This document shows, piece after piece, positions 1 to 32,989 of a stretch of 38,448 bases of DNA (the first letter of the stretch is position 1; each line of letters opens with the position of its first letter). A program made the position numbers and the translations under genes. The notes below the pieces were generated by a model. It was not told the origin of the DNA. It searched no databases and was given only the letters and a program-made list of their open reading frames with translations. Source of the stretch: an uncultured Alphaproteobacteria bacterium (GTDB taxonomy: Bacteria; Pseudomonadota; Alphaproteobacteria; Rs-D84); NCBI GenBank assembly GCA_964017835.1, contig CAXHMP010000004.1:1-38448 (forward strand). The letters run 5' to 3'.

Positions 1-158
1 AAAAAACACCGCCATTGACGAAAGGCGGTTGGAGGTTAGAAACTATTAGTAGTAATAGCGTTGTTTATTTTATATATTCACAACCCTCCAACCATCGTTG
101 GAGTTTTTTAATGACTACTAAGAGGTTTCTAAGCCCCACACCGGGCGTCACCCGGTGC
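1..158 (-). ncRNA. Candidate structured sRNA, copy A of a three-member paralogous family
   Basis: Minus strand has TTGCGA (193-188), a 17-nt spacer and TATAAT (170-165). The transcript has a 5' hairpin CACCGGG/CCCGGTG, a long-range helix TTAGAAAC+TTAGTAGT with ACTACTAA+GTTTCTAA, a hairpin CTCCAAC/GTTGGAG and a small helix GTTG/CAAC. It ends in terminator ACCGCC-N10-GGCGGT plus U6 at 29-1. By eye it is about 85-90% identical to the inverted copy at 21395-21546. Confidence 0.55.
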
Positions 159-198
159 GCCATCATTATATTCTAATTACGGGGGAATCGCAAGCGGG

Positions 199-1267: not shown

Positions 1268-2227
1268 ATGGCAAATGTTGTTTTGGAATCTTTGTTAAAA
1301 CCGTTGGCGGATTTTTATACGCCATCTTTTGTCGAAGAAATCGCCATTAATCATGCCGGTCAGGTGTGGATGCGGCTGCATGGGGCGCGGGTACCATGGG
1401 TGTCGTACGATGCACCCAATTTGTCCCGGCAATATTTGGTCGATTTAATTCATACCGTGGCCAATATCTATGACCGACCGTTTAATCCCACGCACGGGGT
1501 GCCGGTGGTCTATGCCACGTTACCGGGTAATCACCGATTCAGCGCCATTGCCGGTCCCAATGTTCAATATGACGAACGTGACGTCACGGGGGGTGTCGCG
1601 ATGAATATCCGTGGCGGTGGCGCGCCGGATACCAGTTTTGAAAACTATCACCTGCGGCGTGGGGAAAAATTGTTACAGGTCAAAAAACGTAAAACTGACC
1701 GGCCCGACGACCCGTATGAACGCTTGATGGCCGCCATTAATGATGGCAGCCCCATTTTAATCAGTGGCGCCACCGCCACCGGCAAAACGACGTTTTTAAA
1801 TCATCTGTTGACATTAATCGACCAAAATAGCCGCGTTATCACCGTCGAAGATGCGCGCGAAATTCGCGTGCCACAGGAAAACCGTGTTCACTTTGTGTTG
1901 TCGCGGACCGAACAGAACAATGACTTTAATTATGCGCGTCTGTTGGATTTGGTGGTGCGTATGACGCCCGATGTTATCATCGGTGGGGAAATTTCAACCG
2001 ACAATGCATCGGTGTTGTGGGAAATGCTGGGGACGGGGCATGACCATTTTTATACCACCATTCATGCGGAAAGCGCGGATGCAGCATACGCCGCCTTTGC
2101 CGACCGGATTTTGCATACCCAGCCTGCGTACGACCGCGCCCAATTAATTGCCGAAATGCGCCAGAAAATTCGTGTCGTGCAATTGTCGCGCGATGGGGCG
2201 TTGCGTGCGGTGACCGAAGTGGTCTGA
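1268..2227 (+). CDS. virB11: VirB11-type type IV secretion ATPase (T2SS/T4SS GspE-VirB11 family), orphan
   Basis: Walker A is ISGATATGKTTFLNHL, followed by TVEDAREI, IIGGEI and a His box TTIHAES. Length is about 320 aa. Start is placed at MANVV (1268); the ORF opens at 1232. Confidence 0.8.
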   Translation: MANVVLESLLKPLADFYTPSFVEEIAINHAGQVWMRLHGARVPWVSYDAPNLSRQYLVDLIHTVANIYDRPFNPTHGVPVVYATLPGNHRFSAIAGPNVQYDERDVTGGVAMNIRGGGAPDTSFENYHLRRGEKLLQVKKRKTDRPDDPYERLMAAINDGSPILISGATATGKTTFLNHLLTLIDQNSRVITVEDAREIRVPQENRVHFVLSRTEQNNDFNYARLLDLVVRMTPDVIIGGEISTDNASVLWEMLGTGHDHFYTTIHAESADAAYAAFADRILHTQPAYDRAQLIAEMRQKIRVVQLSRDGALRAVTEVV

Positions 2228-5600: not shown

Positions 5601-7844
5601 ATGGTATTGAAAAAAAAGAAAAAAACAAGTACTTTGTCCTGTATGTTCCATGATGGCGATATTGTCAAAGTTTTAATCCCCAACGTTATTAACGCCGGGT
5701 ACGATTACCGGTTGCGCGGCGATGCCCAAATTGGCGACATGGTGCGCGTGACGGTGATGATGCGGCCCTATGTCGGTGTTATTGTTGGTCCCGGGGACAG
5801 TGGATTGCCGTTTGACAAGATTAAGTCTGTGTCCGAAGTTTTGTCCATGCGACTGAATCCGACCGATTTGCGATGGATTATGAAAATGGCCGAATGGACC
5901 ATGATGGCGCCCGGTGCGGTGTTACGGTTAATCTTTAATGTGCCGGACGCGTTTTTGCCGCCACGGATGGAGCAACTCTATGCGCTGGATTTAAGCGGGG
6001 GCGGGCGCATGACCGACGCGCGCCAGGCGGTGGCGGATGCCTTTGCATCCAATGCAGGCGAAGCGTTGTCGGCGGCCGATATTGTGCATATTGCCCGGGT
6101 CAGTTCCGCCGTCGTGCGGACCATGATAAAATCGGGCATGTTGGTGCCGGTTGTGCAACAGGCGGTTCAATCAAAAACAATCATTCCCACATATCATGAC
6201 ACGGGCGCCATTGAATTAAATGCCGAACAATCCGCCGCCGCGGCCGCCATTGGGGACGCAGTTCATCAGGGTGGCTTTTCGGTCCATCTGTTGGATGGGG
6301 TAACCGGCAGTGGCAAGACCCAGGTCTATTTTGATGCCGTATGGCGTGCCTATGCCGCGGGGAAATCGGTTTTACTGATGATGCCTGAAATCGCGTTGAC
6401 GGCGCAATTTATGTCGCGGTTTGCCGCGCGCTTTGGCGCGGCCCCCGTTGTGTGGCATTCCAATTTGACCGCGGCGCGGCGGCGTGATATTTGGCGCGCG
6501 GTGGCGTCGGGCGACGTGCGCATTGTGGTTGGCACGCGCAGCGCGCTGTTTTTACCGTGGCAAAACTTGGGCCTGGTGGTGATTGATGAAGAGCATGACA
6601 CGTCGTACAAGCAGGAAGATATGGGCAATTACCATGCGCGCGATATGGCGATTTTACGCGCGTCGATTGCCGGTTTTCCCGTTGTCTTGGCCAGTGCGAC
6701 GCCGTCGGCGGAAACGATTGAAAACGTGGCGCGCGGTCGGTATCAGCGGTTGCGGTTGACATCGCGGTTCGGCGGTGCGCAAATGCCCCAGATATCAACC
6801 ATTGATATGCGGACCCAACGGGCCGAAGAATACACCAAGCCGGATGATGCGACGCAAATGTGTCCGGGTGCCTTGTCGCCCGAACTGTGTGCCGCAATCG
6901 ATGAAACGGTCCGGTCCGGGCGCCAGGCAATGCTGTTTATCAACCGGCGCGGTTTTGCCCCGATTGTTCAATGTCGCAAATGCGGATATGTCGCGCAATG
7001 TCCCGATTGCAGTGTTGGAATGACGTATCACAAACGCATGGGGAAATTATTGTGTCATATCTGCGGGCGGACGGCGCCCATGGCCGATGTCTGTCCCGAT
7101 TGTGGCGGGGCGGTGACATTGCGCGGCACGGGGCTGGAAAAAGTGCAGGAAGAAATCACCGCCAAGTTCCCGGGCGTCCGTACCGCGTTGGTGTCCAGTG
7201 ACACGATGATGTCGCGAATGGCATTGGAACGCCTGGTTACCCAGATGGAGCAGGGCGATATCGATATTGTCATCGGGACCCAGATTCTGGCCAAGGGGCA
7301 TCATTTTCCCAATCTGACATTGGTGGGGGTGGTGGATGCCGACATGGGGTTGTTCGGGACCGACTTTCGCGCCGCCGAACACACGTTTCAACAATTGTTC
7401 CAGGTGGCCGGGCGCGCGGGGCGTGGTGCATTGCCCGGGCGCGTGTTGATGCAGACGTACCAACCCGACCACCCGGTGATGCAGGCAATATGTGCCGGCG
7501 ACCGTGATAATTTTATGGCCATTGATATGGCGGCGCGCCGCGCCGCGCGCATGCCCCCGTATGGTCAATTAATCGCATTGATTGTCGAAGGGCAGAAGGA
7601 AAGCATCCTGCAAAAATTCTGTGCCGATTTGGCCAATGCGGCCCCGCAATTACAGGGGGCGAAAATCATGGGACCCATCGCCGCCCAGGTCTATCAAATT
7701 CGAAATTGGTACCGGATGCGGTTTTTGATTTCCGGCGATGCCCGCGCGAATTTGCAGCCGGCGGTCAAGCATTGGCTGGATAAAGTCAAGGCACCCGCGA
7801 ATATTCGTGTTAAAATTGATGTTAATCCACAAAACTTTATGTAA
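5601..7844 (+). CDS. priA: Primosomal protein N' (replication restart helicase PriA)
   Basis: Walker A is GVTGSGKTQVY and the DEAH-type box is VIDEEHD. Cys-rich zinc motifs CRKCGY..CPDC..CHICG..CPDCG are present, as is GRAGRG. An alternative start is MFHDGD at 5643. Confidence 0.93.
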   Translation: MVLKKKKKTSTLSCMFHDGDIVKVLIPNVINAGYDYRLRGDAQIGDMVRVTVMMRPYVGVIVGPGDSGLPFDKIKSVSEVLSMRLNPTDLRWIMKMAEWTMMAPGAVLRLIFNVPDAFLPPRMEQLYALDLSGGGRMTDARQAVADAFASNAGEALSAADIVHIARVSSAVVRTMIKSGMLVPVVQQAVQSKTIIPTYHDTGAIELNAEQSAAAAAIGDAVHQGGFSVHLLDGVTGSGKTQVYFDAVWRAYAAGKSVLLMMPEIALTAQFMSRFAARFGAAPVVWHSNLTAARRRDIWRAVASGDVRIVVGTRSALFLPWQNLGLVVIDEEHDTSYKQEDMGNYHARDMAILRASIAGFPVVLASATPSAETIENVARGRYQRLRLTSRFGGAQMPQISTIDMRTQRAEEYTKPDDATQMCPGALSPELCAAIDETVRSGRQAMLFINRRGFAPIVQCRKCGYVAQCPDCSVGMTYHKRMGKLLCHICGRTAPMADVCPDCGGAVTLRGTGLEKVQEEITAKFPGVRTALVSSDTMMSRMALERLVTQMEQGDIDIVIGTQILAKGHHFPNLTLVGVVDADMGLFGTDFRAAEHTFQQLFQVAGRAGRGALPGRVLMQTYQPDHPVMQAICAGDRDNFMAIDMAARRAARMPPYGQLIALIVEGQKESILQKFCADLANAAPQLQGAKIMGPIAAQVYQIRNWYRMRFLISGDARANLQPAVKHWLDKVKAPANIRVKIDVNPQNFM

Positions 7845-7849
7845 TCGGT

Positions 7850-8058
7850 GAAAACGGGCGGGCCTTGGTAAAATAAAGGCCCACCTTGACCAGAAGGAGG
7901 GCTGGAGGTTAGAAACTACCAGTAGATAGTGCGGCGCCTTGGGGCATGGGCCTGTATAGCAACCGCCCTCCAACCCAAATTGTTGGAGGCTTTTATCGTC
8001 ACCTGGGACGCTACTGGCGGGGTTTCTATACCCCATGACAGTGGTCATGTCTGTCACG
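7850..8058 (-). ncRNA. Candidate structured sRNA, divergent copy B of the family
   Basis: Minus strand has TTGAAA (8093-8088), a 17-nt spacer and TATAAT (8070-8065). The architecture matches copies A and C with different sequence in the paired positions: 5' hairpin TGACAG/CTGTCA, helix TAGAAAC+CCAGTAG with CTACTGG+GTTTCTA, and hairpin CCTCCAAC/GTTGGAGG. The 3' hairpin GGGCCTT/AAGGCCC has a weak U-run, so the 3' end is uncertain. Confidence 0.5.
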
Positions 8059-8128
8059 TCGAATATTATAACGTATTTAATTTGGGCTTTCAACCCGTAT
8101 CAGGGGAATTTTCCACCAGAATGCGAAT

Positions 8129-8798: not shown

Positions 8799-11030
8799 AT
8801 GAGTAAAGAAATTATCGAAAACATTGATTCACAACAGTTGGCCGACGCGTTGTCGGAACGTTATCTGTCTTACGCGGTCAGCACCATTGTATCGCGTGCG
8901 TTGCCCGATGTACGCGACGGGCTAAAGCCGGTGCATCGCCGTATCCTGTATTCCATGTTGCGCCAGAAATTGTCCCCGGCGGCCGCGTTTCGCAAATGCG
9001 CCACAGTCGTTGGTGACGTGTTGGGGCATTATCACCCCCATGGTGACAGTTCGGTCTATGACGCGATGGTGAGACTTGCCCAGGATTTTTCCGTGCGCTA
9101 TCCGTTGATTGACGGCCAGGGGAACTTTGGAAACATAGACGGTGACCCCCAGGCGGCATATCGTTATACCGAATCCAAAATGACCGATGCCGCCATGTTG
9201 ATTATGGAGGGATTGGACGAAGACAGTGTCGATATGATGCCGAACTTTGACGGCACCACGGTTGAACCCATGGTTATGCCGGGGGCGTTCCCGAATCTGT
9301 TGGCCAATGGGGGAATGGGTATCGCCGTGGGGATGGCAACGAATATTCCGACGCACAATGTGGCGGAAATTTGCGATGCGCTGAATCTGATTATCGACCG
9401 GCCGGATGCCACAACCGCCCAGATTATGAAAAAGTTAATTGGGCCGGATTTCCCGACGGGCGGTATTTTAATCGACAGTTTTGATACAATTGTTAAAAAT
9501 TACGAAACCGGACGCGGCGCGTTTCGTGTGCGGGCAAAATGGGAAGTCGAAGACCTGGACCGCGGCGCGCAACAGGCGGTCATTACTGAAATTCCCTATG
9601 GCATCGTCAAATCCAAACTGGTGGAACAAATCGCCGGGTTGATTGATGCAAAAAAATTGCCGCTGGTGGATGACATTATTGATGAATCCACGACCGATGT
9701 GCGTATTGTCATCACACCCAAAAGCCGTAATGTCCCCATGGATAAAATGATGGCGCATTTGTTCGCCATGACGGATTTGGAATCGCGGTTCAATATGAAC
9801 ATGAACGTGATTGATTCCAATGGGGCGCCCCGGGTCATGGGGATTGGCGATGTACTGCGCGAATTTGTCGCGCACCAGAAAAACGTCTTGCTGCGGCGGA
9901 CGAATTGGCGGCTGGGCAATATTGCGCGGCGGTTGGAAATTTTGGACGGGTTGCTGATTGTGTATCTGAATCTGGACCGCGTGATTGAAATTATCCGCAA
10001 CGAGGATGATGCCAAGGCTGCACTGGTTGCCGAATTCAAACTGACCGATGTCCAGGTCGAAGCGATTTTGAACACACGCCTGCGCAGTTTGCGCAAGTTA
10101 GAGGAAATGGAAATTCGACGCGAAGATGCCGAATTGCGTGCCGAACAGAAACAGTTAACGGATTTGTTAAACAGCGAGGCCATGCAAAACGACCAATTGC
10201 GTGCGTGGTTTGCTGATATTAAAAAGCGGTACGATAAAAAAACAAATCTGGGGCGGCGTCGCACTGCCTGGGCCGAAGATACCCAAGAAATTGTCGTCAA
10301 CGCGGACGAATTTATTGAAAAAGAACCCTTGACGGTAATCTTGTCCACGATGGGATGGGTTCGCGCGGCCAAGGGACACCTGGATTTGAACAGTTTGGAT
10401 TTAAAGTTCAAAGAAGGCGATGAATTGCAATCTGCGTTCCATGCCATGTCGACTGATAAAATCAACCTGTTTACGTCGGGCGGAAAAATGTTCACGTTGG
10501 GGGCAAACGATTTGCCGTCGGCGCGCGGATTTGGTGAATCGGTGCGTATGATGGCCGATATCGGGGCGGACGAAAATATTGTGCGTGCGTTCGTGCTGGA
10601 TACGGGGGCAAAGTATCTGTTGGTGGGACGGCACGGAAACGGATTTATCGTGTCCGGTGAAAATTGCGTCGCCCAGACCCGAAACGGTAAACAGGTTATG
10701 AATGTCGATGCCGCCAACCCCGCATTGATGTGCGTGCCGGTGACCGGTGACACGGTGGCGATGTCCGGGTCGAATGATAAACTGTTGATATTCGCAACCG
10801 CGGAAATTCCGGAAATGACCCGGGGCAAGGGTGTCATTTTACAAAAATACAATGCCGACCGGACATACGTGTTGGATGTCATGTTCTTTGACGCGGCGGA
10901 CGGATTCGGATGGACCACGGGGCGCGGCACAACCAAATTGGATGACTGGGCGCCATGGCGGGGCAAGCGTGCATCCCAGGGCCGCACCATCCCGGTCGGT
11001 TTCCCACGCAGTGGAAAATTTGGCAAATAA
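8799..11030 (+). CDS. parC: DNA topoisomerase IV subunit A
   Basis: [26 protein letters not shown] and QAAYRYTE (the family's active-site Tyr motif) match GyrA/ParC. A length of about 743 aa without a long GyrA-type tail favours ParC. Start is at MSKEI. Confidence 0.88.
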
Positions 11031-11035
11031 TAAAT

Positions 11036-11057
11036 CCGCCCAATCGGGCGGTTTTTT
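11036..11057 (+). terminator. Intrinsic terminator of parC
   Basis: CCGCCC-AATC-GGGCGG is followed by TTTTTT. Confidence 0.75.
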
Positions 11058-11067
11058 CTTAACCTCT

Positions 11068-11591
11068 TTAACCCAGCAGGCGGACAGTAGTGGGGATGCG
11101 GCCAGTGCAGCGACGTTGTGTTTACAGTTACCCTTGGTATTAGAGGGTGTAGGCGGGATAGAGAACTATAGCGGGGGCCGCCGAACATCATATGATCCGT
11201 ATTCAGTTGCGCGTGTAATAGGTTGGAGTGCATCGAATGACGATTTGACAAGTCTGATGGACAAGCGTACCGAGATAAAAAAGGATGATATGTTAACGCG
11301 CACAGTATGGGCGGCATGGTCAGCAGAAGATAGAATTTGTCATGTATATGGAATAGATAAATATTGCGGCAAGGATTCCGAAGTCGCAAAACGGATGAAG
11401 GTTGATAGGGAATATAATAACGCCAGAAAAGAAGCAATACGTACAAATTCCCTGGTTGGACGATTGGTGGGTGGGCCGATTGGTTCTGCAATCGGGGCGC
11501 TGCAATTGGCGCGCTGGTCGGTGCCTTGCGCAAGCCAGAAGATTCCTATGTTTGCCGTCAAGAGGAATGGAAGAACGAAGTACCGATGTGA
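11068..11591 (+). pseudogene. Promoterless, start-less, frameshifted inverted copy of the 3' end of the Cys-rich gene at 12333-14924
   Basis: It translates to LTQQADSSGDAASAATLCLQLPLVLEGVGG..RTVWAAWSAEDRICHVYGIDKYCGKDSEVAKRM. The parent has LTQQADSSGDASSAATLCLQMPLVIEGVGG..DKICHVYGIDKYCGKDSEVAKRM. Positions 11068-11422 are about 90% identical at DNA level to the reverse complement of 12986-12632. The tail (GAAIGALVGALRKPEDSYVCRQEEWKNEVPM*) continues in another frame and lacks most of the Gly/Ala-rich anchor. Confidence 0.7.
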
Positions 11592-12332: not shown

Positions 12333-14924
12333 CTAGCCCTGGTTATCACCCATTTGTGTTTCGGTATGCCATTCGCGTTCACGACAAACATACGGGTCTT
12401 TCTTTTTTGTAAATATTGCCGCCAATGCCGAACCAATAACAAGAGCGCCAGCCGCGGCCCAGCCTGCAACAGGGATTGCCGATAGAAATGGTGCGGCGGC
12501 TAATGCGGCATACCCAGCACCCCAGGCGGCCCCCGTTGATGCTAGTACAGCGGTACCAATCGCGCCTGTTGTGACTGCGGCGCCAATTCCCGCCCCGACC
12601 GCGGCATTAGTTGCGAAATTTTTTCGATAGTTATCATCATATTCTTTATCAACTTGCATCCGTTTGGCGACTTCGGAATCCTTGCCGCAATATTTATCTA
12701 TCCCATACACGTGACAGATTTTATCTTCTGCTGACCAGGCCGCCCATACTGTGCGCGTTAACATATCATCCTTTTTTATCTCGGTACGCTTGTCCATCAA
12801 ACTCGTCAATTCATCATTCGATGCACTCCACCCTATGACACGCGCAACTGAATACGGATCATATGATGTTCGGCGGCCCCCACTATAGTTCTCTACCCCG
12901 CCTACACCCTCTATCACCAACGGCATCTGAAGGCACAACGTCGCCGCGCTGGACGCGTCCCCACTACTGTCCGCCTGCTGGGTTAATTCTGTTAAGCGAC
13001 CATTATAGTGGCGTTGCGCACGTAACAATCCGCTTTGGGTAATCACCAGACGATACGGATTCATGACCGTCGGATAACGCGCGTCGGTTTGTTCGTCGCG
13101 GCCGGTAATCTGGCTAAGGTCACGACCGCGGGTACACATCTGTAATTGCGGGTCGGACGTGTAAATGTTCAACACCGCGTCAATGGATGCCTGGATGGTT
13201 TCCAGTTCATCACGCACGCGGTCGATGATGCCCGAAACGTTGCCATACTTGGTATCATTCGGGGCCTGGCGCACGCGGTCGATATATCCGTCAATATCAA
13301 TTTTTCCCGCCTGGGGGTATTTGGCGTCACAGTCTTCGTTGCCGGCCTGCATACATTTGGCCCATTCTTCGCCGCCGCTGATTTTCAACAGGTCAAAATT
13401 AATCAAGCCCGATATGATATGTTGATTTCCGACTTTTTGATAGGCCAATGAATTCGCACCGACATATTCCTGGGTATCATAAGCGGCACAGGTTTGCGTA
13501 TCGCCGCAGATTTCAATCATGTAATCGCGCGCGCGGTTCAGGCAAAAATCCCGTTGTTCATTATCAATGTTCATATACACCGACATGGTAATGTCATCCA
13601 AATCTTCGATTGAAAAATTCGGATTTCCCTGGCGGCAGACGACCAATTTTTCCAGCGGACACATTTTGTGTAATGCGTCCAAATCCAGACCCAAACAGGC
13701 CCCAAAGTCCGCCCCGCACGCGTTGTCCGCGGTTAGGCAATTGTGAACTTCGGATGTGCAGGCATCGGGAAACATCCCCGCCAATTTACGGCGCGCTTCG
13801 TCCCAAATATTGGGAACAACGCTTTCACAGCGTTCGATTTCGATTTTACAAAAACTGCGTGCCATGTCCGGATACGCCAGGCATGAATCCATTGTCGCCG
13901 TGCCGGTTCCGGCGATGTCATCGCGACAGGCACGGACAATGCACTGGGTAACACTGTCCCAGCAGCCGGTGCGGAAATCTGATTCATGGTGTGTTTGTGC
14001 AACGGTCAGTTCGTTTTTAATACTGGCCAAAAAGGCGGGATAAACCTGGTCCCGGACATCAGTACAACTGTCCAGAACCGATGCGCACATGTCGGATTTG
14101 CGCGCCATGATTTCATCTGTCGTTTCCGATGCCGTCGGCATACATTCACCCCAATCCGCCCCGCAGACACCGTCGGATACAAAGCATTCATGATAGGCGA
14201 TGATACATTGGCCCAAATCATATTTGTTTGCCGCGCGATAGGCATCCAGGGCCGCCCCTTCTATTTCAGAACGTGCCGCCGTTCGTGCGTTGGCCAATTC
14301 TGTGCGCCGGGCCTTGATACTGTTTTGATAGGCCAAGCAATCGGATTTTATCGTTTGATTGTACAGCAGCGTCAGCATGTCCATATTGGCGTCACATTTG
14401 GCATCCAGACGGTCGCGGCACAATTCATAGGCCGCGTTTAATTTACGCCGGCCCGTCAAATCGCCAATTAATATTTCATCATCCCCGTCGTCGTCAGATG
14501 TTGTTGGTGTGTTAAAGACATCCAATGACACGCGGGATTTTTTTTGTAATGGTTCAGATTTCTGGGACGCCAATTTTTCAACGGCTGGCGTGGTTTCAAT
14601 TGCATTGATGGTGGCCATGGTGCGGGATTCTAAACGCTGAATCTGGTCATCAATTTCACGCCATTGGGTATCGTATTTTTCGCCGTCGTCCGAACAGGTA
14701 CAGCGCCCGCCGTTGGCATTGTCCATTAAACAAAAGGTGTCCAAGCATCCAAAAAGTTGTTCCTGGCAGTCCGAAGGGACAGTGGATTGCGTGCTTTTTT
14801 TTGCGATGGTTGTTCCCGCATTGATAGCCGAAACGGTGTTTTTGGTCGCGGCCGCCGCCCAAGCAACGTCTTGGACAAATATGATGCCAATCAAAAGGCG
14901 TGCAACAATGCGCAGCAAAGACAT
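12333..14924 (-). CDS. Large secreted Cys-rich protein with a C-terminal Gly/Ala-rich membrane anchor; family unknown
   Basis: The signal peptide is MSLLRIVARLLIGIIFVQDVAWAAAA. I counted about three dozen Cys, including the twice-repeated motif CGADWGEC / CGADFGAC. The C-terminal segment GAGIGAAVTTGAIGTAVLASTGAAWGAGYAALAAAPFLSAIPVAGWAAAGALVIGSALAAIF is glycine-zipper-like and hydrophobic. Confidence 0.75.
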   Translation of the reverse strand: MSLLRIVARLLIGIIFVQDVAWAAAATKNTVSAINAGTTIAKKSTQSTVPSDCQEQLFGCLDTFCLMDNANGGRCTCSDDGEKYDTQWREIDDQIQRLESRTMATINAIETTPAVEKLASQKSEPLQKKSRVSLDVFNTPTTSDDDGDDEILIGDLTGRRKLNAAYELCRDRLDAKCDANMDMLTLLYNQTIKSDCLAYQNSIKARRTELANARTAARSEIEGAALDAYRAANKYDLGQCIIAYHECFVSDGVCGADWGECMPTASETTDEIMARKSDMCASVLDSCTDVRDQVYPAFLASIKNELTVAQTHHESDFRTGCWDSVTQCIVRACRDDIAGTGTATMDSCLAYPDMARSFCKIEIERCESVVPNIWDEARRKLAGMFPDACTSEVHNCLTADNACGADFGACLGLDLDALHKMCPLEKLVVCRQGNPNFSIEDLDDITMSVYMNIDNEQRDFCLNRARDYMIEICGDTQTCAAYDTQEYVGANSLAYQKVGNQHIISGLINFDLLKISGGEEWAKCMQAGNEDCDAKYPQAGKIDIDGYIDRVRQAPNDTKYGNVSGIIDRVRDELETIQASIDAVLNIYTSDPQLQMCTRGRDLSQITGRDEQTDARYPTVMNPYRLVITQSGLLRAQRHYNGRLTELTQQADSSGDASSAATLCLQMPLVIEGVGGVENYSGGRRTSYDPYSVARVIGWSASNDELTSLMDKRTEIKKDDMLTRTVWAAWSAEDKICHVYGIDKYCGKDSEVAKRMQVDKEYDDNYRKNFATNAAVGAGIGAAVTTGAIGTAVLASTGAAWGAGYAALAAAPFLSAIPVAGWAAAGALVIGSALAAIFTKKKDPYVCREREWHTETQMGDNQG

Positions 14925-21233: not shown

Positions 21234-21394
21234 AAAATCCCCCCACCGCCCAGGGGCGCGATGAAAGCCACCGCGTTTTCATTGTCCATTCCCCCGTTGT
21301 CTGCCCACATTAATACATCATTGCTGTGGGAATGGACACGGGGGATTTTTATTTCCCGCTTGCGATTCCCCCGCAATTAGAATATAATAATGAT

Positions 21395-21546
21395 GCACCG
21401 GGTGATACCCGATGTGGGGTGTAAAGGCCTCCTTAGTAACAAAAAACTCCAACACGGGTTGGAGGGTCGTGATATATTAAAATAAACGACACTATTACTA
21501 AGTAGTCTTTAACCTCCAACCGCCCTTCATCACGGCGGATTTTTTA
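21395..21546 (+). ncRNA. Candidate structured sRNA, copy C of the family (inverted relative to copy A)
   Basis: TTGCGA (21360-21365), a 17-nt spacer and TATAAT (21383-21388) precede it. Helices are TAAAGGC+CTTAGTAA with TTACTAAG+GTCTTTA, hairpin CTCCAAC-ACGG-GTTGGAG and GTCG/CGAC. Terminator CCGCC-N9-GGCGG plus T6 lies at 21520-21545. Confidence 0.55.
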
Positions 21547-21565: not shown

Positions 21566-21790
21566 ATGCCAGTAATTTCGAATGAAACGCGGCTTATCGG
21601 TGGCGCGATGCGGCACGGCCGCCGCATGAACCGCATCAGCCGCACGGCCGCGGCACGGGCGCTGCGGGTTAGTTTGGAGGAACTCGGCCGTATCGAGGGT
21701 GGCCGCATGGTCATCCCGCGCCGGGTGCTAAACAGCCTGATGTACCACGCGATACGGAATAAATGTAGAAAGGATGAGGATATTAATTAA
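21566..21790 (+). CDS. Small XRE-like HTH protein (74 aa)
   Basis: RISRTAAARALRVSLEELGRIEGG resembles a helix-turn-helix of the XRE type. The start is uncertain, since several Met codons are available. Confidence 0.45.
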   Translation: MPVISNETRLIGGAMRHGRRMNRISRTAAARALRVSLEELGRIEGGRMVIPRRVLNSLMYHAIRNKCRKDEDIN

Positions 21791-31276: not shown

Positions 31277-32989
31277 ATGGGGAATTTTATCAAAACGCAA
31301 AATTCATTTGCAAATGGTGAAGTCGCGCCAGAATTCTTTGCACGCGAAGATATTAACGGCATGTCGCGATTGGAAAACATGGATGTGTTGACCGGGGGTG
31401 GTTTGGCACGTCGGCGCGGGTTGGCGACGGTCGCAAATCTGGGGCGGGATGCGCGGTTGATTCCGATGACGGTTGCGGAAAATGAAAATTATCTGTTGGC
31501 GGTGGCGGCGGGTCATATATACATCTTTAAAAACGGCCAGAAAATCCAAGATTTAATTGCGCCGTGGTCGGTCGACGCGTTACAGAAATTGCAATATGCC
31601 CAACGGTTCGACACAATTATATTTGTTCATCCCGATTACCAGCCCCAGGTGTTGTCCAAAAATGGTGCGATGTTCAAACTGAATGTATTCAATTTTACCG
31701 TCAGTGATGATATGGATGTTTATATTCCGTTTATGAAGTTTGACGACGCCAGTGGTATCAAAATTTCCGTCACAACCCATTCCAATGGAAACAATTACGC
31801 GACATTTACAACCAGTTCGGCGTTTTGGACGCCTGAAAATGTCTTGGGGCGTGTCTTTTTATTAGGACGCCAGTGGCGGATTGCCGAATATGTCAGTCCG
31901 ACTGTTGTTGTCGCAATGACCAATGGTCAATGGAATTTGCCGTCGGGGCCGGTGTCCGACTGGTCCGAAGCCGCGTTCGGAACACGACGCGGGTGGCCGT
32001 GCAGTATTTCATTCCACCAGGACCGATTGGTGTTCGGCGGGTCGCGGTCATGGCCCAGTGGGGTGTGGATGTCCAAAGTTGGCCAGCACCACAACTTTGA
32101 TGCAGGTACCGGATTGGATGACGAGGCCATCTTTTTAACCCTGTTGTCCGAACAGCGTCAGCAAATCTGTACCGTGGTCAGCAGTGATAATCTGCAAATT
32201 CTGACGTCGGTGGGTGAATGGGCGATTTCCAGCAAGCCGCTGACGCCGTCCGCGGTTGATATCAAACAGCATACCGCCGTCGGCAGTGTGGCATCGCGAT
32301 ATTTGCCGCCGCAAAAAATCGAAGGCTGTACCGTCTTTATTTCCAGCAGCAAGAAAGATATTCGCGAATTGGCGCTGGACGAATTGGGGGTCAATTACAA
32401 TGCCAATGATTTGTGCGCATTGTCCAAACATTTGATGCAAGGGCCGGTGGATGTGGCCTATAACGAAGAAACGCATCAATTGTTTGTGGTGTTGGAAACG
32501 GGGGATATTGCCGTTCTGAATAAAAATTCGGCGTTGGGTATTGCTGCGTGGGGATTGTACAAAACCCAGGGAACGTTCAAGTCTGTGGCGGTTATGGACG
32601 GCGAAACGTATGTTGTCGTTGAACGTGGAAACGCAATCGGGATTGAAAAATTTTCGGACCAGGCATTAAATGATGCCGGCTCATACGGATTTTCGTACAC
32701 GGCGTCCGCGTTACCAATGTTAAGTGGCAAGCATACGCCCAAAAGAATTCGAATTCGTAAAATTACCGCGCGCGTGTTAAAGACAAAATCTGTCTTTATC
32801 AATGGTGTGCGCGCCCCCATTCCCAACGATGTCCAATTGCCAGATTCACCAGGCTTTACCGGCGACGTGACAATCAATTTGTTGGGGACGGCAATCAATA
32901 CCATTGACCCCATGTGGACAATTCACGGCAGTGAACAAATGCCTGCAACAGTCTTATCCGTCACCATGTACGGGTGGTATTTAATCTAG
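31277..32989 (+). CDS. Tail tubular protein B / nozzle-like protein
   Basis: The N-terminal pattern QNSFANGEVAPEFFAREDINGMSRLENMDVLTGGGLARRRG is typical of podovirus nozzle/stabilisation proteins as I remember them. It is 570 aa and lies directly after the gp11-like gene. Confidence 0.5.
   Translation: MGNFIKTQNSFANGEVAPEFFAREDINGMSRLENMDVLTGGGLARRRGLATVANLGRDARLIPMTVAENENYLLAVAAGHIYIFKNGQKIQDLIAPWSVDALQKLQYAQRFDTIIFVHPDYQPQVLSKNGAMFKLNVFNFTVSDDMDVYIPFMKFDDASGIKISVTTHSNGNNYATFTTSSAFWTPENVLGRVFLLGRQWRIAEYVSPTVVVAMTNGQWNLPSGPVSDWSEAAFGTRRGWPCSISFHQDRLVFGGSRSWPSGVWMSKVGQHHNFDAGTGLDDEAIFLTLLSEQRQQICTVVSSDNLQILTSVGEWAISSKPLTPSAVDIKQHTAVGSVASRYLPPQKIEGCTVFISSSKKDIRELALDELGVNYNANDLCALSKHLMQGPVDVAYNEETHQLFVVLETGDIAVLNKNSALGIAAWGLYKTQGTFKSVAVMDGETYVVVERGNAIGIEKFSDQALNDAGSYGFSYTASALPMLSGKHTPKRIRIRKITARVLKTKSVFINGVRAPIPNDVQLPDSPGFTGDVTINLLGTAINTIDPMWTIHGSEQMPATVLSVTMYGWYLI

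Follow-up and report, generated by a model that had tools for sequence, protein, structure and literature searches.

The 38,448-nt stretch of DNA analysed here, referred to below as the window, is contig CAXHMP010000004.1 (positions 1 to 38,448) of assembly GCA_964017835.1, from an uncultured alphaproteobacterium of the order Rs-D84, and it carries three copies of a structured RNA element. We consider it probable, at roughly 0.7, that this element is a cis-acting leader RNA, a riboswitch-like attenuator that governs whether transcription passes the element's intrinsic terminator and enters the adjoining downstream gene. The element is a new family, a previously undescribed leader RNA of a known kind, the transcription-attenuating leader RNA; it is filed as new because it has none of the defining sequence or structure features of any curated family. 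An original prediction, made from the letters of the window, had described the three copies as paralogous small RNA (sRNA) genes, each with its own promoter and terminator, and that interpretation is partly supported by the evidence laid out below.

All three of the predicted loci are present, copy A at 1-193 (minus strand), copy B at 7870-8093 (minus strand) and copy C at 21360-21545 (plus strand). Each begins with its own promoter of 17-nt spacing, as had been proposed, and a promoter scan recovers all of them: TTGCGA-17-TATAAT in copy A (165-193, minus strand), TTGAAA-17-TATAAT in copy B (8065-8093, minus strand), and in copy C a -35 box TTGCGA, a 17-nt spacer and a -10 box TATAAT (21360-21388, plus strand). 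The sequence pattern GGTTGGAGGG-N35-65-TAACCTCCA occurs three times in the window, against 0.00 occurrences expected from 100 shuffles. A covariance model built from the wider family (see below) scores copy A at 109 bits, copy C at 91.6 and copy B at 79.3; it finds no fourth copy in the window, and on the reverse strand of the window reaches at most 22.5 bits, about 85 bits below the forward strand. The predicted folds are more stable than chance (z-score -4.0 for copy C, -6.3 for copy A, -4.0 for copy B), and the minimum free energy (MFE) folds reproduce the architecture first described, namely a 5' hairpin, a GGGG tract, a two-part long-range helix, a CUCCAAC/GUUGGAG hairpin, a fourth helix and a terminator. 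Copies A and C had been thought 85-90% identical; that figure was too high, and they agree at about 78% over the element. Copy B is indeed far more diverged, at 45-50% identity to A or C, yet keeps the pairings through compensated helices.

The family is much larger than the window suggests. Copies were gathered by two pattern-seeded genome scans and by covariance model, so that all family counts given here are samples and lower bounds. The first scan, with the motif pair GGTTGGAGGG...TAACCTCCA and one genome per species, gave at least 120 matches; the second was anchored on the P4 loop and the P6 helix (described below), was blind to the switching word, and yielded at least 103 further model hits. 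The covariance model, R1, was built from 103 cores and recovers additional copies in the fetched loci that the sequence pattern had overlooked. All told, at least 232 leader copies are covariance-model hits within 1.7 Mb of fetched loci. In place of a small set of three stand-alone sRNA genes, then, we are dealing with a family that runs to hundreds of copies.

The central feature of these RNAs is a repeated word. Each RNA contains three copies of one word of about 9 nt: CUCCAAC toward the 5' end (the 5' copy), a complementary strand GGUUGGAGG in the middle, and CCUCCAACC toward the 3' end (the 3' copy). In the sample seeded without reference to the word, the word falls into discrete classes within which the three strands change together. 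The AAC class (AAC/GUU/AAC) reads CUCCAAC / GGUUGGAGG / CCUCCAACC, while the UGAC class (UGAC/GUCA/UGAC) reads CUCCUGAC / GUCAGGAGG / CCUCCUGAC. Further classes include ACUCC/GGAGU/ACUCC and GU/AA, and the remaining strand sets read ACUCCAACC / GGUUGGAGU / AACUCCAACC; CCAGC / GGCUGG / CCAGCC; CCCAAC / GGUUGGG / CCCAACC; and CUCCAAAC / GUUUGGAG / CUCCAAAC. Different classes can coexist in one genome, with three found in the Enterousia metagenome-assembled genome (MAG) JAZNAO01, and among the copies examined the UGAC class never stands before a helix-turn-helix (HTH) gene.

The middle strand can pair with either of its neighbours, and both pairings are backed by covariation. Support was assessed by column-wise pair counts and by covariance-model alignment; these were used because RNAalifold on the raw MAFFT alignment, in which variable regions misalign, recovered only one helix (P5). 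Helix P3, between the 5' copy and the middle strand, is paired at 95.4% with two-sided changes in 7 of its 8 pairs. Helix P5, between the middle strand and the 3' copy, is paired at 97.9% with two-sided changes in 6 of 9 pairs, in an alignment whose model had no P5 in it. Middle-strand columns 216-218 covary with the 5' copy and with the 3' copy alike. Uninterrupted complementarity averages 7.6 bp in P3 and 8.9 bp in P5, compared with 5.8-5.9 bp when strands are matched across classes. Since P3 and P5 share one strand and cannot form together, both folds must be under selection. The original prediction had left the ACCUCCA(A/G)CC tail simply single-stranded; covariation instead makes it the partner strand of the alternative helix P5. 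When P5 was enforced on the three window copies, the resulting fold contained Pa, P4 and P6, helices that are backed by covariation and missing from the MFE fold.

In copy C (plus strand throughout) the strands of the two folds can be followed from the inferred transcript start, where the MFE fold places a 5' hairpin, P0, at 21395-21415. A P0 hairpin of -5 kcal/mol or better is present in 96% of 229 copies (226 distinct sequences) and in 18% of shuffles. It is followed by Pa (21416-21431), identified by covariation and in the P5-enforced fold, in which GGGG (21416-19) pairs with CCUC (21428-31) around a loop formed by UAAAGG (21422-27), the 5' strand of P1b. Pa (GGGG/CCYC) covaries at one pair, with GC in 43 sequences, GU in 34 and AU in 21, and has variants including GAAG/CUUC and GUGG/CCAC. 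The outer helix of the MFE fold, which pairs GGGG with the CCUCC tail, was considered as the partner of this tract and is not favoured: GAAG/CUUC, GUGG/CCAC, CAGG/CCUG and GGAG/CUCC covary locally, as Pa, while the tail stays CCUCC. The 3' strand of P1b, UCUUUA, lies at 21506-21511 and pairs with 21422-27. Family-wide, pairing in P1b (Pa-loop UAGAAA with UUUCUA) is 99-100%, with two-sided changes at 4-6 of the 6 pairs; at single positions, AU in 42 sequences, GC in 23, CG in 22 and UA in 16 occur with zero mismatches. Taken together, the topology of Pa and P1b would be that of an H-type pseudoknot.

The long-range domain is completed in the MFE fold by P2, whose 5' strand X (21432-21439) pairs with X' at 21495-21502. 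Across the family, the 8-nt P6 loop that holds X' forms a median of 7 uninterrupted pairs with X, the strand after Pa, compared with 4 when loops are swapped between sequences. Inside this domain, and placed by covariation, the 5' copy CUCCAAC (21447-21453) forms the 5' strand of P3 and is the proposed anti-antiterminator, and the middle strand GGUUGGAGG (21457-21465) has the 5' copy (P3) and the 3' copy (P5) as its alternative partners. It is followed by P4 (21466-21490), a covariation-backed hairpin with a GUCGU/ACGAC stem and a conserved A/U-rich loop whose family consensus is GAAUAUAUUGAAUAAG. All 5 pairs of P4 show two-sided changes, and the stem is compensated within the window itself (GUUGU/ACAAC in copy A, GUCGU/ACGAC in copy C); in some members an inserted hairpin splits the loop GAAUAUAUUGAAUAAG. 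The next hairpin, P6 (21492-21505), with a CUAU/GUAG stem and X' as its loop, forms when P5 is enforced and likewise covaries (CUAU/AUAG, CAAU/AUUG, CUAC/GUAG). Because P2 takes up essentially the whole P6 loop, P2 and P6 could hardly coexist in full. Last comes the 3' copy CCUCCAACC (21513-21521), placed by covariation as the 3' strand of P5 and proposed as the antiterminator. One further explanation was tried for the conservation of the P4 loop and the P6 3' strand, that TTGAAT in the former and TATAGT in the latter make an internal sigma-70 promoter. Inspection by eye led to its rejection, since the CAAU/AUUG variants, which are common, abolish the -10 box, and the transcript would hold only the terminator.

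The cores of the other two copies follow the same plan. On the minus strand, that of copy A (27-139, from model and fold) has its 5' copy at 97-103, middle strand at 85-93 and 3' copy at 27-35. In copy B (7900-8036, minus strand, from the same sources) the 5' copy CCUCCAAC is at 7982-7989, the middle strand at 7967-7975 and the 3' copy CCUCCAGCC at 7900-7908, where an A-to-G change retains a U-G pair; this copy has an additional P2a hairpin and a diverged, extended P4.

Several controls bear on whether this is structure at all, and the helices first noted are borne out by covariation as belonging to a genuine structured RNA. Among shuffled sequences 0 of 500 reach the observed scores for whole structures, and sliding the 3' partners lowers pairing from 94-98% to 30-59%. 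Two-sided compensatory changes occur in at least seven helices, and G-U pairs are confined to the transcribed strand. These results also bear on the possibility that the element is a selfish repeat, a mobile promoter cassette resembling a miniature inverted-repeat transposable element (MITE) and devoid of function at the RNA level. Such a cassette would fit a multi-copy element that breaks short-read assemblies, its absence from the four closest genomes at the position behind the ppiD orthologue, and a similarity between copies A and C that begins about 20 nt ahead of the -35 box. It would not be expected to show massive compensatory change in at least seven helices, or a reverse strand about 85 bits lower, or a uniform orientation to the downstream open reading frame (ORF), and an alignment of the A and C flanks shows no terminal inverted repeats. 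The original prediction would have failed had the copies behaved as a MITE; the strand-specific covariation, the uniform orientation and the A/C flanks all speak against that; target-site duplications were not examined systematically. A purely selfish repeat is therefore contradicted, and we regard it as extremely improbable.

The 3' copy runs into the terminator. In copy C the MFE fold has an intrinsic terminator at 21520-21545 (plus strand), with a CCGCC/GGCGG stem, a 9-nt loop and a run of six U residues, and it shares 21520-21521 with the 3' copy. In copy A the fold gives ACCGCC/GGCGGU and a U-run that reaches the window edge (1-29, minus strand), and in copy B a terminator-like hairpin with an interrupted U-run (7870-7901, minus strand). 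Promoter scan and folds thus bear out the proposal that each copy has both signals. Across the family, a hairpin of -5 kcal/mol or better followed by at least four U residues is found in 199 of 232 copies, and in 191 of these 199 terminators two or more of the final four nucleotides of the tail form the base of the stem. Formation of P5 would remove the base pairs adjoining the U-tract, and for this reason it is expected to act as an antiterminator.

What follows the terminator is, as a rule, a gene. The unit is laid out as promoter, leader, terminator and ORF in uniform orientation, with a TATAAT-like -10 box, often TGnTATAAT, that peaks 31-32 nt before the core. By a strict rule, 189 of the 208 copies with enough downstream sequence (91%) have a Shine-Dalgarno (SD) site and, within 200 nt, the start of a co-directional ORF that encodes 50 aa or more; by inspection, most of the other 19 have an ORF or a second, tandem leader downstream. 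The ORF starts within 75 nt in 174 of the 208, at a median of 50 nt past the tail and about 20-25 nt past the U-run. A gap of about 20 nt between U-run and start leaves no room for a second promoter. The original prediction had noted the upstream neighbours; the co-directional SD and ORF association points instead to the downstream gene.

For copy C the gene presumably controlled is an ORF of 74 aa at 21566-21790 (plus strand; ORF list, Pfam and alignment), which encodes an XRE-type HTH protein, begins 20 nt past the U-run and has GGGGG 10 nt before its ATG. It matches Pfam HTH_31 with E = 2e-5 and 25.2 bits, slightly below the cut-off of 27, and aligns with the small HTH proteins behind other copies, which form the commonest downstream family; the sole match to the HTH protein among solved structures in the PDB, a ClgR-like one, is weak. 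Among 40 small downstream proteins, Pfam recognises HTH_31 in 19, HTH_3 in 13 and HTH_19 in 14, all of the XRE type. The other downstream groups are a second small protein family and signal-peptide proteins, the latter mostly without a Pfam family (Flg_new in 7). Recurrent signal-peptide proteins of about 60-78 aa stand behind the leaders in L126, L140, L155 and L043, with the motif IPSTEYVQQQ...KVDTSA.ANQTMAGTYT...PTP.LP. The downstream gene of copy A is beyond the window edge.

On this evidence a mechanism can be proposed. Transcription would start at the leader's own sigma-70 promoter. In the OFF fold P3 would join the middle strand to the 5' copy, the domain would be closed by the long-range helices P1b and P2, and the 3' copy would be left free, so that its last 2-4 nt could build the base of the terminator stem and transcription would stop. 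In the ON fold the middle strand would pair with the 3' copy (P5), in a three-way junction closed with P4 and P6; the base of the terminator stem would then be sequestered and RNA polymerase would continue into the downstream gene, an XRE HTH protein for copy C and elsewhere often a secreted or surface protein. A second, coupled exchange of P2 for P6 would accompany that of P3 for P5. The balance, presumably set during transcription, would be tipped by a ligand, a protein or an RNA. The P4 loop or the junction is the likely recognition site, and our guess is that the effector is a small molecule or protein that recognises them.

Several points weigh against this attenuator model. In all three window copies nearest-neighbour energies (pseudoknots not counted) favour the P3 fold over the P5 fold by 5-8 kcal/mol; from this the default would probably be termination, and the ON fold would need help or kinetic control. 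The overlap between P5 and the terminator is only 2-4 nt, and no known aptamer motif was recognised in the leader. Copy B keeps every feature with no downstream gene, as no co-directional ORF follows it and priA (5601-7844, plus strand, with Pfam PriA domains) converges on it. Relatedness alone can beat shuffle controls without any structure, a concern that the slid controls argue against here. The loci were collected by pattern, so that some of the invariance is there by construction (GGTTGGAGGG and TAACCTCCA in A2/A5, the P4 loop and P6 in A6). Finally, the hosts are all uncultured MAGs, and the switch is a prediction from sequence.

Some of the same observations fit a stand-alone trans-acting sRNA, in which a terminated transcript of about 150-190 nt would be the functional product, its CCUCC strands would pair with SD regions or other targets, and the downstream genes would be mere neighbours. 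Each copy is an independent transcription unit with its own promoter and strong terminator, the default predicted fold is the terminated one, and every RNA has two CCUCC-containing strands against a single GGAGG, leaving one surplus strand of anti-SD type. Copy B, whose helices are compensated at 45-50% identity to A and C with no gene behind it, is a rare orphan and the sole copy in the window that fits a free-standing sRNA. The idea also has a precedent, as the terminated riboswitches SreA and SreB of Listeria also act in trans. Against these points, the position of the element is tied to the downstream ORF, over 90% of copies standing before a co-directional reading frame at a fixed distance that holds no promoter, and a plain sRNA needs no second, selected, mutually exclusive helix that cuts into the base of its terminator. 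Targets were sought by eye only, and no complementarity beyond GGAGG was seen in the downstream leaders. We therefore consider a purely trans-acting role rather unlikely. A trans activity is, however, compatible with the cis model and need not displace it; it may occur in orphans like copy B and in the abundant terminated leaders, for both of which SreA and SreB offer a possible model.

The alternation of helices also raises the question of whether a ribosome does the switching. In attenuation of the trp/his type a ribosome stalled on a short ORF over the 5' copy would free the middle strand; the 1:2 / 2:3 / 3:4 helix logic is formally that of trpL, and the middle strand contains GGAGG. However, an ATG ORF with an SD-like site runs through the 5' copy in only 6 of 227 copies, 121 copies have no such ORF at all, and short-type leaders, copies A and C among them, have no candidate ORF. 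With this count, leader-peptide attenuation was rejected, and we give it hardly any credence.

At the outset the element could not be assigned to a named RNA family, and the family searches made since agree with that. Rfam 15 at gathering threshold finds only two tRNAs in the window and no family for any of the window copies, and nothing consistent came from scanning copy C, copy B and 12 further loci at permissive settings. Motif strings from the element were found in no RNA paper, and a literature search for 'Rs-D84' with 'riboswitch' returned nothing. The closest approach to a curated family is sRNA-Xcc1 (RF02221), a Xanthomonas integron-associated sRNA in which a closing stem surrounds two hairpins, and of which the leader could conceivably be a divergent form. 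The 3' domain of copy B (7892-7975) matches it at 31.1 bits (E = 0.0011 in a 351-nt search), and the aligned fold, closing stem and two hairpins, equals the P5/P4/P6 three-way junction, so that the consensus shape is weakly matched. That score is far under the gathering score of 53, however, and there was no match in copy C at E <= 10 or in 12 other loci at E <= 5. Host clade, the 5' half of the element and genomic context also differ, the leader being found 5' of genes and sRNA-Xcc1 in integrons (PMC2996969). Kinship with sRNA-Xcc1 is thus very unlikely.

Other multi-copy RNAs offer looser comparisons. The members of the CcsR / 'cuckoo' alpha-r14 group are multi-copy alphaproteobacterial sRNAs with CCUCC(UCCC) anti-SD motifs in hairpin loops. 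Like the leader they are alphaproteobacterial and multi-copy, with exposed CCUCC motifs and their own terminators, but they are short sRNAs that lack a complementary GGAGG strand and a gene-proximal terminator switch, and the leader has no Rfam match to them. The c-di-GMP-I/II (GEMM) riboswitches occur in many copies per genome, before genes for secreted and surface proteins and small regulators. The leader resembles them by gene association only, being multi-copy, linked to surface or secreted proteins and small regulators, and sometimes in tandem (L044, L133, L180), whereas Rfam matches it neither to GEMM nor to another riboswitch.

The nearest functional parallel is with three-helix attenuators, built from an anti-antiterminator, an antiterminator and a terminator, as in the PyrR-controlled pyr leaders of Bacillus and many riboswitch and T-box platforms. 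The leader shares with riboswitches and attenuators a conserved structured domain backed by covariation, a same-strand 5' position with no intervening promoter (copy B excepted), and mutually exclusive pairings that would serve as terminator and antiterminator. More specifically, as in the pyr, riboswitch and T-box attenuators, a structured 5' leader with its own promoter contains a central strand with two alternative partners, one upstream and one downstream; the latter overlaps with the 5' arm of an intrinsic terminator that immediately precedes the regulated ORF. Its sequence and fold, on the other hand, are unrelated to any curated family. It is also unusual among three-helix attenuators in its second coupled, exclusive pair (P2 versus P6) and in a word that occurs in a few discrete classes and does not drift freely.

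The hosts of the family form a narrow group. Among the matches listed, nearly all are MAGs from gut, rumen or faeces labelled Alphaproteobacteria, Candidatus Enterousia or 'Rickettsiales', and the listed host MAGs belong to the order Rs-D84, which comprises Candidatus Enterousia and its relatives; these are uncultured bacteria of the gut, and most have genomes below 1 Mb (PMC12306168). Secondary, unseeded hits put the background density at an estimated 8-9 copies per Mb of fetched sequence. As a check for phage origin, viral contigs were searched with the leader pattern and gave no match. One bona fide copy (L017, 83 bits) lies on a contig binned as Muribaculaceae, in a Bacteroidota MAG, which is probably a binning error rather than an occurrence outside the Alphaproteobacteria. 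The window itself has a GC content of about 0.50, and its nearest neighbour among the relatives compared is the 'Mgla' gut MAG JAAVBR01, with 71% identity in PpiD.

The genomic neighbourhood of the window copies had been described as lying directly behind the terminators of co-directional genes. This holds for copies A and C, each of which has a terminator-like hairpin just upstream; none was detected before copy B, and the ORF upstream of copy B is unassigned. Two of the upstream genes were correctly recognised as folding catalysts, an FKBP_C protein at copy A and a PpiD-like SurA_N/rotamase protein at copy C. At the ppiD orthologue loci of the four closest MAGs (L234-L237) the leader-plus-HTH cassette is absent from the orthologous position, so that its placement is not shared from one species to another. 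The FKBP gene beside copy A is carried by four public contigs (L121-L124), every one of which ends at or near the element; the repeat appears to break short-read assemblies. Elsewhere in the window, three large ORFs have no Pfam match at E <= 1e-5, 12333-14924 (minus strand, 863 aa), 9596-11533 (minus strand, 645 aa) and 31277-32989 (plus strand, 570 aa), and none of them has a leader copy in front.

A few individual loci deserve mention. Complete leaders occur in same-strand tandem at L044 (753-880 and 1013-1147, plus strand), L133 (6907-7038 and 7133-7273, minus strand) and L180 (2806-2936 and 2980-3089, minus strand), each leader with its own promoter-like region and terminator, an arrangement that recalls tandem riboswitches. 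In L046, about 20-90 nt past the leader at 1599-1718 (plus strand), there is an apparent partial second 3' domain (GGTTGGAAGGTGTCGGAATATAACTGAATACGGCGC...) behind the terminator, with no recognisable 5' half. A weak copy on the closed MAG OZ007020.1 (L141:7416-7532; 53.8 bits, GC 0.26) has an unrelated hairpin, UGCAAGG/UCUUGCA, in place of the 5' copy and the middle strand while retaining the 3' copy AACUCCAACC; it may be a locked or degenerate variant. Unrelated to the leader, an 84-nt perfect palindromic hairpin at L167:3403-3486 scores with several microRNA models in the permissive Rfam scan.

The discrete word classes invite a broader reading, in which the leaders make up an RNA-level regulon with addressable channels and the classes are recognition codes for class-specific trans factors. 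It is suggested by the coexistence of classes in JAZNAO01 and by the way they track gene class, the UGAC word never preceding HTH genes; we regard it as speculative and on balance improbable. The class-specific factors could be diffusible RNAs, in that the surplus CCUCC strand of terminated leaders or orphans could invade or mimic the antiterminator or anti-antiterminator of other nascent leaders, or they could be dedicated RNA-binding proteins. In a less exotic variant, though still a new one, the family would be a riboswitch class not yet discovered that responds to a small molecule or a second messenger.

For RNA biology, the leader is a well-populated putative orphan switch with an unusually clean three-way covariation, in which two mutually exclusive helices are both under selection. 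The covariance model is usable now to annotate Rs-D84 MAGs and to flag the regulon, and the repeated leader would explain the breaks of short-read assemblies at element sites. The biology of the Rs-D84 order is almost unknown, and the dominance of the leader in such ultra-reduced genomes is a trait in itself; the leader would be a major regulatory device there and a handle on communication with host or partner cells. Should the classes prove to be addressable channels, it would exert master control over both the secreted and surface proteome and a family of XRE regulators in genomes of less than 1 Mb.

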